From: Alphaproteobacteria bacterium | GTDB taxonomy: Bacteria > Pseudomonadota > Alphaproteobacteria > Bin95 | Assembly: GCA_963668305.2 (NCBI GenBank) | Contig: CAXXPN010000002.1 | Location: 1,120,001-1,184,000, forward strand | Direction of reading: 5' to 3' | Length of the DNA: 64,000 nucleotides | Shown: positions 18,165 to 62,139 of the stretch, piece after piece | How the letters are laid out: each line of letters opens with the position of its first letter | How positions within the stretch are numbered: position 1 is the first letter of the stretch | Made by a program: the position numbers and the translations under genes | The notes under the pieces: generated by a model | What the model was told of the DNA's origin: nothing | Seen by the model: only the letters and a program-made list of their open reading frames with translations | The model's database searches: none

Positions 18165-18840
18165 TGTCATGATGTGTCATGTTCTGTCATGCGCGCCGCC
18201 GGAAATGTCATGTTCTGTCATGGCCCGCTGGCTCTCTCCCTCCCGCTCGGCGGGCTACCGGATTCAGACATTTCCGGCGGCCTTGGACCGCGCGCCCCCA
18301 TTCGTCGCCCCGGACTTCGATCCGGGGCCTTGTGCGGCCGGAGCCCCGTTGCATGGAGGCCCCGGCTCGCCCTGCGGGCGTCCGGGGCGACGAAGCTGTT
18401 ACGGACCATAACGTAGCCGGGTCAGCGGGCCCGCCGGATACAAACCGAAATGTCATGTTTTGTCATGGTCCGCCGCGCCTCCGGTCCCATCGCCGTCCGT
18501 CCGTATCCTGCATGCCGTTCCTCCTTCGCGTTCCGTTCTGCTCCGTTCCGTTCGCCCCGCCGCCGGCCCGGCTGCGGCGGGACCCTGTTTCGCGCGTATT
18601 GCGCGCCCGCCCGTCAGCGCGCGTTAGCGCCGGCGCGGTTTGCGCGCCTGATTGCCCGCGCACGCGCGAGACCCCGAAATCAGGGCGCACGTCTCCCGTC
18701 CGTTCCGTTAGAAACTTTTTCGCGCCGGCGCGAAGCGGCCCCGCGGATGCCACTTCCACTGCTCCATATTAGCACTGATTTCCGGGATACAAGCCCGTTG
18801 CGGGAATTATTTCCAAAAAATATTGAACAAAATGCTTTCA
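18165..18840 (-). repeat. Dispersed intergenic element, copy A (phased TGTCATG clusters, leader, promoter)
   Basis: TGTCATG at 18165/18175/18185, 18206/18216 and 18451/18461; 18451-18832 is colinear with 61717-62132, including an identical 28-mer (18572-18599 = 61865-61892). Confidence 0.85.
18766..18832 (-). promoter_or_regulatory. Sigma70-like promoter TTGTAT-N15-TAATAT with an upstream GAACAAAA motif
   Basis: Same geometry as the promoters at 45841-45867 and 62067-62093. Confidence 0.5.
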
Positions 18841-19146
18841 TCTGTCTTCGTCCGCCCGAAACGACCCGGACCGGGCCCGGTGCAACCGTGCTGAGAGAGC
18901 CGCGTTTAGGCCACGCCCGCACCGCGCGCACCGTGGGGAAGGCAAGACAGAAAGTTGACATCCGATTTTCATCTGAAGGGACGGGCGTGTCTTCGGATCT
19001 ACCGTTACGATGGCGGATCTTCGCCGTAAATTTCCGAACGGGAGACTTCCCATGTTTCCGATAACCGAGACACAAGCTGTCGGGAGTAATCGAAGGGGCT
19101 TATGACCCTTACTTGACGATGGGCATGGAGGCATCATGATGGGCGG

Positions 19147-19323
19147 ATGGTCGGAATCATTCGTCGCGCCTATGGCGTTTTCGGACTCTGCGGTGGCGCA
19201 TTCGGCATAGCCGGGTGGCAAGATGACGCTCAGACTTGGGCGGAGTGGGCGAAAGTGAACCCGGAGATTGCAGGCGCCTTGATGGGCGCGGGCGGGATCA
19301 TGGTTGCCACGTGGATCGTGTGA
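19147..19323 (+). CDS. 58-aa hydrophobic peptide, possibly a truncated membrane gene
   Basis: Manual translation MVGIIRRAYGVFGLCGGAFGIAGWQDDAQTWAEWAKVNPEIAGALMGAGGIMVATWIV; TTGACG-N16-CATGAT lies just upstream. Confidence 0.4.
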   Translation: MVGIIRRAYGVFGLCGGAFGIAGWQDDAQTWAEWAKVNPEIAGALMGAGGIMVATWIV

Positions 19324-19532
19324 GAGATCGTAGCGTGGTAGCCGCTCGGCAGAAGCATTGTTCTACGCTGGCTAACATGTTGGCGCTGGACGACGTTGAG
19401 GGCATCCCAATCCGCCCCGCGCGAGAGGCGGTGGGAATGGGAATCGGCCTGAATCCGGAGGCGAAGGACGATGTGTAGCAGGTTAGCGGGGTGACGAAGC
19501 AGCACAGGGAACGGCCAGGCGCTGATCGCCCC

Positions 19533-21463
19533 ATGGCGGTGATCGTCCAGCAGGGAAGGTCCTCGACTACATCGACGGCGTCACACAGCGCCCGGAGACA
19601 CCGGAGGAGTACGTCCGGCAGGAGATCGCGAAGTCTCTGGTGCGTGAGTACGGGTACCAGAAACGCGATGTCTCGGTCGAGTTCACGCTTCGACTCGGAA
19701 CCCGCCGGCCACGCGCAGATCTCATGATCTTCGACGAGGACGACGCGCACGACCAAGACCGTGCGAGGATCATCGTCGAGTGCAAATCGAGGAAGATCAA
19801 GCCAACGAGCCGAAAGGACGGCGTCGGACAGTTGCACAGCTATATGGCGGCCTGCCCGAATGCGGCGTACGGGATGTGGACCAACGGCGTCGAGCGATTC
19901 TGCTACAGGCGCGTTGATGCCGAAGGCAAGGTCCGGTTCGACGAGATCCCGGACATTCCGAGCTGGGGAAGCTCGGAGGACGAGGCCGAACGCCCGCGGT
20001 TCGATCAGTTGAAGGCCGCGTCGTCGGACGCGTTGCTCTTCGCCTTCCGCCGCTGTCACAACTACATCGCGGGCAACCAGGGCCTTCAGAAGCCTGAGGC
20101 GTTCTGGGAACTGCTCAAGATCATTTTCTGCAAGATCCACGACGAGCGAAGCTCGGACGAAATCCAGTTCTATGCAACGTCGAAGGAGCGGGAGGGGCTG
20201 AACGGCCGGCTCAAGGCGAAGAAGAGACTCGACCAGCTATTCGGTCATGTGAAGGCGGAGTTCCTCATGATCTTCCGCGAGAACGAGGCGATCGAGCTGA
20301 ACCCTGAGGTGTTGGCGTACATCGTCAGCCAGATGCAGATGTACTCGCTCCTCGAAAGCGACATCGACGTCAAGGGACGGGCCTACGAGGAGGTCGTCGG
20401 TTCGAATCTCCGTGGGGACCGGGGTGAGTTCTTTACGCCCCGGAACGTGTGCAAGATGACAGTTGCGATGCTCGATCCCGGCGAACGGCAACTGATCGTC
20501 GATCCAGCGTGCGGGACGGGCGGCTTCCTGATTACCGCGATGAACTACGTCATCGAGAAGATCAGGGACGCAGAGATCAGTAAGTGGGGCGACATTGATC
20601 GCGCTGAGACTGCGATCCGGGGGCGCGTACAGCGTGTTTCCCGGTCGTTCATCGTTGGGATGGACCTGAATCCAAACCTGGTGAAAGCATCCAAGATGAA
20701 CATGGTCATGAACAACGACGGTGCGGGCGGGCTGTTCCAGGCGAACTCGCTCAAAGCCCCTGTGACCTGGGAGGACGAGCTTCGGACGCGAGAGCTGCTC
20801 GGTCGCGTTGATCTGATCTTCACGAATCCGCCGTTCGGTTCGAAGATCCCCATCGACGAGCCGACGATTCTGGAGGCGTATGACTTGGGCCATGTGTGGA
20901 AATACGACGACGAAAAGGACCAATGGACACGCACGGAAGCCGTCCAAGCGTCACAGCCTCCCGAGATTCTGTTCATTGAACGTTGCGTTCGACTGCTGAA
21001 GCCGGGGTCGGGACGCTGCGCCATCGTTCTGCCGGACGGCATTCTCGGATCGCCGGGCTTGGGTTACGTCCGAGAGTGGATGCTCCGGAACACGCGCATT
21101 CTGGCCAGTATCGACTTGCACCCGGACACCTTCCAGCCCCACGTCAGCGTCCAGACAAGCGTTCTCGTGCTGGAGCGGAAGTCCGCGGAACAAATCGCTG
21201 TGGAGACCGCAGCCGGACGCTTCAACGACTACGACGTGTTCATGGCCGTCGCCAACCACGTTGGACACGACAAGCGCGGGAACGTCACGTACGTGCGGGA
21301 TCGTAAGGGCAACGAAATCGTCGAAGAGGTCGACGAGACTCTGAAGGAGTACGAGGACGGGCGGGCTGTCTACACGAAACAGCGGACGCAGCGGAAGGTC
21401 GTGGACGACAACACGCTACAGATCGCACAGGCTTTTAGATCGTGGCTGTACGAGCAAGGCTGA
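19533..21463 (+). CDS. Fused restriction endonuclease (HsdR_N-like) / N6-adenine DNA methyltransferase; 1-bp frameshift near 19553
   Basis: PEEYVRQ...RADLMIF...IVECK nuclease motif; GEFFTPR, DPACGTGGF, TNPPFG. MAVIVQQ (ATG 19533) and GKVLDYIDG (19553) are in different frames; the ORF track starts at 19640. Confidence 0.85.
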
Positions 21464-60953: not shown

Positions 60954-61002
60954 GGGGCCTGGGTCTCCGTGGGTGTCGAGAAATGTCGGTTTGCGGCAGT
61001 CG

Positions 61003-61659
61003 TCAGCCGGGGTCATTGTCCGGCTCGGCGTCTCCCTGCGCGAGCGGCTCAGCCGCCGCGAAGGCCGGATGGCCGGTCAGCCGTGCGTCGATTGCGGTGA
61101 TCGTCGGATAGGCGGAGAGGTCGCAGTCGAAACGCCGGGCGTTGAAGACCTGCGGGATGAGGCAGACATCCGCCATGGTGATCCGGTCGCCGAAGCAGCA
61201 TTCCCCGGCTGTCCGGGCGAGTTCGGGCTCGATGCCGCTGAAGCCTTCCGCGATCCAGTGCCGGTACCAGGCGAGCACCTGCTCCCGGCTGCATCCCATT
61301 TCCCGGCGGAGATAGATCTGGATGCGGAGATTGTTCACGGGGTGCATATCGCAGGCGATCAGGCCGGCGAGCGCCCGGACGCGCCCACGCTCGACAGGGT
61401 CCTCCGGCAGCAGCGGCGGTTCGGGATGCGTCTCCTCCAGATATTCGAGGATCGCGAGCGACTGTCCGAAAACCGTGCCGTCCACCTCCAGCGCCGGCAC
61501 CAGGCCCTGCGGGTTCTTCGCGCGGTAGGCGGGCTGCTTGTGCTCGCCGCCGTCGCGCGAGAGATGCACATAGGCGGATTCATGCGCCGCGCCCTTCAGG
61601 TTGAGCGCGATGCGCACCCGGTAGGCGGCCGTGCTGCGCCAATAGGTGTAGTGGATCAT
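61003..61659 (-). CDS. maiA: Maleylacetoacetate isomerase (zeta-class GST)
   Basis: YWRSTAAYRVRIALNLKG, NPQGLVP, CDMHPVNNLR. Confidence 0.9.
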   Translation of the reverse strand: MIHYTYWRSTAAYRVRIALNLKGAAHESAYVHLSRDGGEHKQPAYRAKNPQGLVPALEVDGTVFGQSLAILEYLEETHPEPPLLPEDPVERGRVRALAGLIACDMHPVNNLRIQIYLRREMGCSREQVLAWYRHWIAEGFSGIEPELARTAGECCFGDRITMADVCLIPQVFNARRFDCDLSAYPTITAIDARLTGHPAFAAAEPLAQGDAEPDNDPG

Positions 61660-61716
61660 GGGTCCCCAAGCCTCCCGCGGTCCGGCGGCATCGTTTTCCT
61701 CCGACGCCGCCGAGAT

Positions 61717-62139
61717 TGTCATGAAGTGTCATGTTTTGTCATGAGGCGTCATGACCCGCCGGGCTGCAGACCTCTCCGCCCGCATTGCCGAAGTTCCGTT
61801 CGTCTGCATTCTTGCCATGATCCCTCCACCGCGTTTCGTTCCATCCGTGCCGCCGCCTGCCGGTCTGCGGCGGGACCCTGTTTCGCGCGTATCGCGCCCG
61901 CGCCCGTGTGCGCGTTTCGCGCCGGCGCGCATATCGCGTGCCTGATTGCGCACACCTGCGCGACGCGGGTGCCGGACGCACATCTCCTGTCCATTTCTTC
62001 GAGGATTTTTTCGAGCCGGCGCCGGCTCGATAGGAGGCGGCTCCGGATGCCGCTTCCTGCTGCCCCATTCTAGCACTGTCCTGCAGGAGTCAATCCACTT
62101 ACCAGTAATTTCCCCAAAATTATTGAACAAAACTGGAAT
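61717..62139 (-). repeat. Dispersed intergenic element, copy D
   Basis: YGTCATG at 61717/61727/61737/61747; colinear with copy A; TTGACT-N15-TAGAAT at 62067-62093; GAAC-N7-GAAT at 62125-62139. Confidence 0.85.

Follow-up and report, generated by a model that had tools for sequence, protein, structure and literature searches.

A genus-specific dispersed cassette joins a promoter-like head and a phased CATGACA array to a small-terminase-like gene

The stretch of DNA analysed here (the window) is 64 kb of an uncultured, sponge-associated alphaproteobacterial genome, G000 (5.52 Mb in three contigs, C1–C3; 67% G+C). It contains four loci, copies A, C and D on the minus strand and a further array on the plus strand, which belong to one family of dispersed cassettes, an observation that lies far above chance. 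We read the cassette as a selfish, genus-specific, promoter-bearing unit whose small-terminase (TerS)-like protein binds phased heptamers, and we give this reading about an even chance because no enzyme that would cut and join the DNA was found. Other genomes of the same genus are denoted G001–G016, and L-numbers denote loci or contigs taken from genomes or from IMG/VR.

In each cassette the order of parts is fixed: an AT-rich head box is followed by a putative housekeeping-type promoter (15-nt spacer, extended –10), a leader made of a 5′ hairpin and a GC-rich core, a ribosome-binding site with an open reading frame (ORF), and the array, an ordered row of three to four CATGACA heptamers one helical turn apart with AT-rich spacers. 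Master copies (~1.4 kb) encode the TerS-like protein, which may oligomerise and bind the phased heptamers that end its own gene, by analogy with a phage small terminase on its packaging (pac) site. Copies A and D would be internal-deletion derivatives that keep the cis parts (head, leader and array), and copy C harbours a different, unnamed ORF. The unit would move as DNA. Because each copy carries an outward-reading promoter, copies upstream of genes could, if that promoter fires, replace or add to the resident one.

The size of the family is evident from the array alone. The pattern CATGAC-N4-CATGAC-N4-CATGAC has 95 matches in G000 and its reversed-motif control has none; when units are chained, 140 arrays result, of which 59 have two units, 62 three, 18 four and one six; 81 thus have at least three units, and a control hexamer yields none. 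An iterated nhmmer search seeded by copy A converged over rounds of 79, 109, 116 and 120 matches, of which 99 include the head, that is, the promoter together with a ~260-nt GC-rich leader. All but two of these heads (97/99) have an array downstream on the same strand within 8 kb, and the array ends 135–914 bp from the head in 82 cases, 1352–1432 bp in 6 and 1.8–5.1 kb in 9. Arrays with no leader within 2.6 kb upstream number 20 of 140, and about half of these 20 are two-unit chance matches inside genes. Each of the three contigs carries heads (65, 20 and 14). An initial annotation, made from the letters of the window, had described one ordered unit that has multiplied and predicted a high genomic copy number, both of which are borne out by the ~99 heads and 140 arrays. 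Its proposal of decay by internal deletion also agrees with the data, in that short copies keep head and tail across elements of 135 bp to ~1.4 kb and contigs from public runs join an array straight onto the conserved leader, whereas its term "self-contained" applies to the longer members and not to the rest. Most copies are 70–85% alike, and the family is therefore old.

The gene kept by the family lies between the leader and the array. It is an ORF of ~300–320 aa, with eight intact examples in G000 (six in ~1.4-kb elements and two in longer ones). Residues 11–82 match the Pfam family Terminase_2 (PF03592; E 2.6e-13, 51.2 bits against a cut-off of 26.1), in an alignment that spans only positions 2–73 of the 141 in the profile, and the protein also matches PHROG small-terminase families, including phrog_51. 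Among 1.84 billion cluster representatives, 1308 match at E ≤0.001 and 40 at E ≤1e-30; small terminases of ordinary size (130–260 aa, 33–45% identity) align with residues 9–120. The AlphaFold model has a mean pLDDT of 57.6, with a confident helix-turn-helix (HTH; pLDDT ~85, residues 11–60) and a fair helical hairpin (residues 69–106), and is helical, of low confidence or disordered past residue 110. The best Foldseek matches, at an E of only 0.02–0.07, are a small terminase of SF6/SPP1-like type (3zqq) and the DNA-binding domain of this protein (2cmp and 4zc3), the latter with an rmsd of 1.3–1.6 over 50–56 columns. Modelling of residues 1–125 as four copies gave self-association scores of 0.12 and 0.30 (mark, 0.42). 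As judged from sequence, residues 1–120 form a TerS-type DNA-binding and predicted oligomerisation core. The remainder is a ~200-aa acidic extension, whose C-terminus, ...APGHDIA, is the first array unit translated as His-Asp.

The TerS-like gene is under purifying selection. Across the 28 pairs formed by the eight stop-free copies of G000, the median dN/dS is 0.33, with 0.19 for codons 1–120 and 0.49 beyond. PF03592 has nine matches over its cut-off in G000, eight of which lie within cassettes. We note that the ninth (G000:C1:663317-663535) is an ordinary small terminase with a 138-aa open frame, located in an AT-rich island with no CATGAC array nearby. The TerS-like protein has no NCBIfam match and fits no PADLOC defence-system model, and no second gene was found beside its ORF in the cassettes. 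The cargo ORFs seen are the TerS-like protein, the protein of copy C (type b) or secondary insertion sequence (IS) insertions, with no transposase or recombinase of the family's own. The initial annotation was thus right that the window has no transposase; the family gene, a small-terminase homologue, resides in copies outside it. For the 173-aa type b protein no Pfam, NCBIfam or PADLOC family was found; it has a weak match to phrog_31793 (E 6e-5) and 147 homologues, all unnamed. Comparison of type b with the TerS-like protein gives no significant similarity (E 0.43).

The pairing of gene and array extends to distant relatives of the protein. A 90%-cluster search gives 336 relatives at E ≤0.001; the best 120 are 65–100% identical, and the few that are named are all called "terminase small subunit". 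In relatives of 42–60% identity, His-Asp-containing peptides stand at or near the C-terminus in 6 of 13 (QHDKS, AHDIS, HDES twice and TKHDIP twice), as expected because translation into CATGAC(A) units gives such peptides. L149, a metagenome locus and the only distant relative for which DNA was obtained, has little sequence upstream of the gene and lacks a long leader, which suggests that the leader belongs to this genus and that the pairing of gene and array is older.

The family is confined to the genus, as judged by comparison with 40 relatives, 16 of the same genus and 24 of other genera. The triple-unit pattern occurs in 13 of the 16 other genus genomes, with 9 to 171 matches each; three smaller genomes (G001, G003 and G013) have no array. 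The pattern is absent from all 24 genomes of other genera, and the reversed control from all 40. In a scan of one genome per species, at least 111 stretches carry the pattern, most in entries named "MAG: Alphaproteobacteria bacterium", with scattered single matches in unrelated organisms. The protein follows the arrays: by tblastn it is present in 12 of the 16 other genus genomes (7–19 matches each), exactly those with 33–171 array matches, and was not found in the three genomes without arrays or in G009, which has nine array matches. G009 also gives 17 DNA matches to a query of copy A with its flanks, and so probably keeps leader-like remnants.

The consensus of 55 full-length copies defines the parts of the unit. 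It opens with TTyGTTC...GAAATAATTC, followed by TTGACn, 15 nt and TG-n-TAggAT, then by a hairpin (GGAAGCGGC...GCCGCTTC), CGCGCCGGCGCG with a run of A, and ACGGGAGA-GTGCGCCC. The highly conserved core comprises GCGCAATCAGGCGCGCG, CCGCGCCGGCGC and GCGATACGCGCGAAACAGGGTCCCGCC, after which come GGAACG, a GGAGG-type ribosome site with ATG and a variable stretch; the 3′ part consists of a frequent short hairpin (CATGCGC..GCGCATG), the array and a loose tail (CGCGGGG or GGAGTGGGCCCC). The 15-nt promoter spacer noted in the initial annotation recurs as TTGAYN-N15-TAnnnT in 58 of 99 heads, 53 of which also have TG before the –10. In its –10 region (GCTAgAAT), and in how far this lies from TTGAC, the site resembles the Caulobacter housekeeping promoter consensus.

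Upstream of the promoter, the initial annotation had seen an SOS-like box and proposed a unit responsive to DNA damage. Control by LexA has in its favour only the AT-rich, TTGTTC-containing box at this position. The LexA-type motifs considered (GTTC-N7-GTTC, GAAC-N7-GAAC, CTGT-N8-ACAG and GAAC-N4-GTTC) are present in 0 to 1 of 99 heads; no SOS-like box is seen, the supposed DNA-damage response is unsupported, and we regard a LexA-controlled unit as scarcely credible.

The array is more than a simple repeat. Units are spaced by 10 bp, one helical turn, in 175 of 183 pairs, and the three bases between heptamers vary with position (behind the first unit AAA or TCG, further on mostly yTT), so that the array is not a uniform tandem repeat. 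The spacers form AT-rich patches in helix phase within a 67% G+C genome. Three CATGAC at a period of 10 give TGA in every frame, as is the case for 77 of the 81 arrays with at least three units, and a stop of the ORF inside the array is therefore nearly automatic. The 7-, 16-, 173- and 29-aa ORFs in the window do all end at an array TGA, as first annotated, with this same limit on what their shared stop can mean. Higher-order arrangements are seen as well. At G000:C3:1088882-1088989, three three-unit arrays follow one another with a 41-bp period, and in many copies a two-unit array is followed by TTTCCGGCGGGCCT and then by a three-unit array.

The arrays also receive another element. A 1362-bp IS, which has copies 100% identical to one another, ends CACTAGTGTCCGG.. 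and 9-bp target duplications, is inserted in CATGACA arrays in five of its eight full copies (G000:C2:96772-98133, 396963-398323, 830795-832155, 1620066-1621427 and 1803685-1805046) and in one partial copy (2102415-2103005), always between units (duplication ACATTTCAT or similar). The CATGACA arrays are a strong target for this IS.

The most conserved part of the cassette is the leader core, above the ORF region, and this conservation, together with a promoter-like site in each copy, would be expected if the leader RNA were the product (a small regulatory RNA or a recombinase guide RNA) and the array and ORFs were secondary. When 31 leaders (two from the window, 14 others from G000 and 15 from other species) are folded together with RNAalifold, the consensus is weak (–17.9 kcal/mol; covariation term, –0.49). 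Double changes affect 4 of 22 pairs, and the compensatory changes, which speak for such an RNA, are mostly in the 5′ hairpin, one pair of which reads AU in 14 and GC in 7 of the 31 sequences. The fold of 59 G000-only copies is equally weak. Since the fold is weak outside the 5′ hairpin, the core is conserved as sequence; gaps in the leader alignment are not multiples of three, which makes a coding function unlikely. Rfam has no match at gathering score across the window, in line with the initial annotation's view of an unrecognised family, and, in 20 copies searched at E up to 1, one chance-level match (E 0.47, 17.5 bits against a gathering score of 50). The lack of a long leader in L149 adds to these points, and we consider a family of non-coding RNA genes quite improbable.

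The direction of the arrays bears on a possible regulatory role. By our own crude gene calls (high third-position G+C; 72–77% of the genome covered), 54 of the 81 arrays with at least three units are co-oriented with the next gene and 27 face a convergent gene end; the orientation is a bias, not a rule. The cassettes might be promoter modules of a domesticated regulon, with the TerS-like protein acting on the array as a transcription factor, roadblock or switch. All four window copies point at the next gene, as do the 54 arrays; the array of copy A ends 25 nt before a start codon in an arrangement kept in G005, the element of copy D stands in place of a resident promoter-like block, and ATGACA units fit 5 of the 6 positions of a –35 hexamer. 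However, a regulon should conserve its binding sites, not a 260-nt leader at 70–85% identity, and would leave the 27 convergent arrays unaccounted for; the regulator is itself multi-copy, with 7–19 matches per genome. The range of 0 to 171 matches among the species of one genus, together with filled and empty sites, fits a selfish element better, and a domesticated regulon is in our view unlikely.

Upstream of the orthologue of copy A's neighbour gene in G016 (L001, on C3), we note a cassette-free site with a –10-like TATGTT and a cassette-type hairpin, GAGGCGGC..GCCGCCTTTTC, directly before the gene; judged by these letters, it could be a minimal or decayed copy.

Orthologous sites differ in whether they hold a copy. 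At the position of copy D, G016 and G005 have the flanking genes adjacent, with a gap of 56–58 bp and no element, and G014 and G008 lack the element while keeping a neighbouring 300-bp segment. The element is present in G015 at 85% identity, G002 retains a single-unit remnant, and a contig of run X3 bridges the site with the element missing. The relatives share a CTCTATAGTC block here, and in G000 and G015 the element stands in the place of this block. G005 retains both the distal array of copy A and the distance from it to the start codon, and has 4.4 kb between head and array; no copy lies upstream of the same gene in G016, G008, G009, G001, G003 and G013, in which synteny differs. In a reverse screen of elements and flanks from other species against G000, 12 candidate pairs were flagged and seven examined. 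Four distinct G000 sites are empty (L011, L036, which is the same site as L086, L046 and L087), the site of L029 keeps only an array, and L082 is ambiguous. L030, L039, L062, L066 and L089 were set aside as apparent element-to-element matches, because their matches fall on positions of G000 family copies.

Several observations weigh against a selfish unit that moves as DNA under a promoter and binding protein of its own. No enzyme of movement was found, and in the TerS-like protein no catalytic domain can be recognised. In the six 1.4-kb copies, similarity is lost ~20–25 nt before the head box and ~12–20 nt after the last unit, and the aligned ends have neither inverted termini nor a duplication. 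Copy C and its twin share a further ~118 bp upstream of the head and ~95 bp beyond the array, again with no end duplication, and the ends of the unit are therefore not fixed. Filled and empty orthologous sites do exist, as the initial annotation foresaw, but the target duplications that it suggested looking for are not cleanly readable at any pair, the junctions being too diverged or rearranged or holding other small repeats. A 28-bp motif, GGTTCCGATC..GGTAT, brackets only 2 of 93 elements in inverted orientation, and so provides no general terminal inverted repeats. With copies 70–85% alike and the closest pair at 95.6%, there is no sign of current activity. A sigma-70 scan with a tool that accepts only 16–18 nt spacers reports no promoter at any head; its sole match lies inside the array of copy D, because ATGACA fits 5 of 6 positions of TTGACA. 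Contigs of public RNA runs cover neighbouring genes without giving start sites or expression levels for the cassette. Finally, the division of 12 genomes with the protein and 4 without is weaker than it looks, because the genomes are kin and not 16 independent observations.

The 28-bp motif was ruled out as a terminal repeat of the cassette, since it represents a separate family of 51–58 copies; of the 93 elements, only 9 have it in the 200 bp upstream and 3 in the 300 bp downstream. This repeat family, which ends in ATCGGTTCCGATCAACGACCGCTGGTAT (reversed motif, 0), occurs genome-wide, for example at C2:1639633 and C2:720160-720179, and often adjoins the cassette head; in the window it is found at ~46014-46041, just upstream of copy C.

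A homologue of a packaging protein raises the question of packaging itself. Small terminases form rings of weak HTH domains that bind packaging-site DNA, which is bent and bears repeats (PMC4737164). The arrays might be pac-like signals that the TerS-like protein hands to the large terminase of an infecting phage or gene transfer agent, with host DNA beside them packaged, resulting in chromosome-wide transduction, or with the arrays acting as decoys that spoil phage packaging. The homology through the DNA-binding and oligomerisation core and the phased, AT-rich spacers favour such a network. So does an unrelated viral contig, L153 (35% G+C), which begins (1-335) with ~33 tandem 10-bp ATGAC(A/G)NCTN units (ATGACAGCTN) directly preceding a 177-aa ORF that belongs to no family, after which come a large terminase (phrog_979, E 7e-56) and a portal gene. 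In L153, an ATGAC array of one-turn period thus lies at the expected position of a packaging site, and is a candidate for one.

The partners for packaging are not found in G000. In searches in which named control genomes were matched each time, TerL_ATPase (PF03354) is absent from all 17 genus genomes, Terminase_6N (PF03237) is absent from G000 and present in 3 of the 17, and Terminase_3 and GpA_ATPase (PF04466 and PF05876) have no match in G000. The only trace of a large terminase there is one 25-bit fragment of Terminase_6C (PF17289) with an in-frame TAG (G000:C1:733186-733494), so that none of the five Pfam families yields an intact large terminase; portal (PF04860) and HK97-type capsid (PF05065) are likewise absent from G000. 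In IMG/VR, 10 loci carry the array pattern and none matches the leader profile beyond the array, which gives no element copy, helper phage or ancestor, and the best viral small-terminase matches to the TerS-like protein are only 29–35% identical. A packaging network would also leave unexplained both the spread to new sites and the retention of a promoter and a 260-nt leader. We judge it unlikely, if the least unlikely of the alternatives to a selfish, promoter-bearing cassette. Another IMG/VR contig (L155, 97 kb) has two inverted CATGACAGGT triplets (618-643 and 1045-1070) beside a ParB-like gene, possibly a centromere-like site.

Within the window, the layout that the initial annotation had assigned to all four loci holds in that CATGAC units at 10-bp spacing occur in each, and copies A, C and D have shared, ordered parts. 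Read along the minus strand, these three have an AT-rich box (TTTTGTTC...GAAATAATTC), a –35-like TTGAC or TTGTA, a 15-nt spacer and TG-n-TAnAAT. After the promoter-like site come a hairpin and a GC-rich leader, then a strong Shine-Dalgarno sequence with its ATG, and last an ORF and CATGACA units at ten-base steps. The 28-mer reported as identical in copies A and D occurs exactly twice (18572-18599 and 61865-61892), with 0 expected from 100 shuffles. The colinearity of these two copies is likewise recovered, as a 304-bp BLAST alignment at 72%, and each matches the family profile across ~450 positions.

Copy A (minus strand) starts with the head box TTTTGTTCAATATTTTTTGGAAATAATTCC (18803-18832), an AT-rich 5′ block where the conservation of the family begins. 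The promoter-like site, TTGTAT, a 15-nt spacer and TG-n-TAATAT (18766-18793), was read from the letters and is absent from the output of the scan. The leader (18514-18765) contains the 5′ hairpin (18732-18757) and the conserved GC-rich core with the 28-mer, and is followed by a Shine-Dalgarno-like GAAGGAGG and a 16-aa ORF (18463-18527) that stops within the first CATGAC unit. A proximal array of two units (18451-18468; GTCATG at 18452 and 18462) is separated from the distal array by a ~220-bp unrelated dispersed repeat (18230-18447, minus strand) that has 25 BLAST matches in the genome. The distal array (18165-18223) has two plus three CATGACA units, is orthologous to an array in G005, and precedes the start of the downstream gene. 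The ~220-bp repeat has a REP-like hairpin, and the same composite of array and repeat occurs at G000:C2:2626652-2626871; because it is found twice, this composite spread after repeat and array had become joined. A plasmid collection gave no match to copy A.

Copy C (44837-46013, minus strand) is delimited by the whole extent that it has in common with its twin, which lies at G000:C2:1759444-1760609 and is 95.6% identical across 1183 bp. Its head (45869-45885), promoter-like site (45841-45868) and hairpin (45805-45831) precede a short leader core, in which the variant noticed in the initial annotation near 45698 is CCCTAGTTTCGCGCGCAT (45696-45713). The cargo ORF (45140-45661) encodes the 173-aa type b protein and reads through the first array of four units (45138-45176); a second array of three units lies at 44931-44958.

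Copy D (minus strand) has its head box at 62105-62132 and its promoter-like site, TTGACT, a 15-nt spacer and TG-n-TAGAAT, at 62067-62093, which together span 62067-62132. The leader (61819-62066) includes the hairpin (62033-62057) and the 28-mer, and leads to a Shine-Dalgarno-like GGTGGAGGG and a 29-aa ORF (61729-61830) that ends within an array of four units (61717-61754). Its head is separated from the upstream flank by 165 bp that are found nowhere else in the genome. Further upstream, a ~300-bp segment (window ~62300-62605) is present in G014, G008, G002, G007, G010 and G004 and absent in G016, G005 and G015, and appears to be a small gene-sized insertion or deletion. The fourth locus, a three-unit array on the plus strand (820-845), is headless within the window; the nearest head on the same strand lies ~2.5 kb upstream, before the window (G000:C2:1118315).

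Among known systems, the cassette resembles miniature inverted-repeat transposable elements (MITEs) and other short repeats with outward promoters, such as the Correia elements of Neisseria, which are likewise short, intergenic and of high copy number, with deletion derivatives, donation of promoters and presence or absence between relatives. Unlike these, it has asymmetric ends with no terminal inverted repeats or readable target duplication, and a TerS homologue instead of a transposase. REP/RAYT systems are also genus-level dispersed repeats tied to one protein family, but consist of 20–40-bp palindromes with a single-copy Y1 transposase, compared with ordered units of 200–1400 bp and a multi-copy protein that has no recognisable catalytic domain. 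Satellites of the SaPI and PICI type are chromosomal elements that own a TerS gene and presumably its site, as here. They measure 5–15 kb, exist in one or few copies and carry integrase, replication and regulatory genes, whereas the cassette has 0.2–1.4 kb, at most one gene and ~100 copies.

In structure and sequence, the closest HTH is that of the SPP1/SF6 small terminase, G1P (2cmp and 4zc3; 41–42% identity, TM 0.82–0.85; PF03592). In SPP1/SF6-like phages, too, the recognition region is made up of direct repeats that are linked to the terminase gene and its promoters (PMC4737164). The cassette differs in having ~100 copies instead of one, a ~200-aa acidic extension, repeats at the 3′ end of the gene, and no large terminase, portal or capsid in G000. 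BldC reads direct repeats about one turn apart cooperatively through a small HTH (PMC5859096), in the manner proposed for the array; it belongs to another fold family and is a single-copy regulator, and serves only as a model of array reading. In sum, the cassette has neither the terminal inverted repeats nor the transposase or recombinase of IS/MITE elements, with which it shares dispersed copies that are present or absent at orthologous sites; it has neither the gene content nor the size and low copy number of phage satellites, and no Rfam family matches it. With small terminases it has the domain in common, without the partner enzyme, and its arrangement fits no described mobile element. 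Within the text that full-text literature searches reached, no description of such an element was found.

To our knowledge, abundant dispersed repeats normally trace to a transposase, a Y1 enzyme or a recombinase. What is unusual here is that the only gene kept by the family, and kept under purifying selection, is a small-terminase homologue, and that its putative binding site, the phased heptamer array, is conserved even in relatives at 42–60% protein identity. Annotation pipelines name this gene "terminase small subunit", a label that could be mistaken for a sign of prophages. Should the protein read the array, we would know of no earlier case in which a chromosomal multi-copy element took over the DNA-recognition half of a phage packaging motor. 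More tentatively, the family may represent a new class of mobile element, in which a domesticated phage small terminase serves the element as its end-recognition protein, reads the phased array and recruits a host or phage nuclease, and whose deletion derivatives have seeded ~100 promoters and pac-like sites across symbiont chromosomes, rewiring expression and possibly marking the chromosome for phage packaging. For these uncultured sponge-associated genomes, the cassettes amount to ~100 strong-looking intergenic promoters, two thirds of them directed towards the next gene, and in at least one case the insertion occupies the position that in relatives is taken by a resident promoter-like block.

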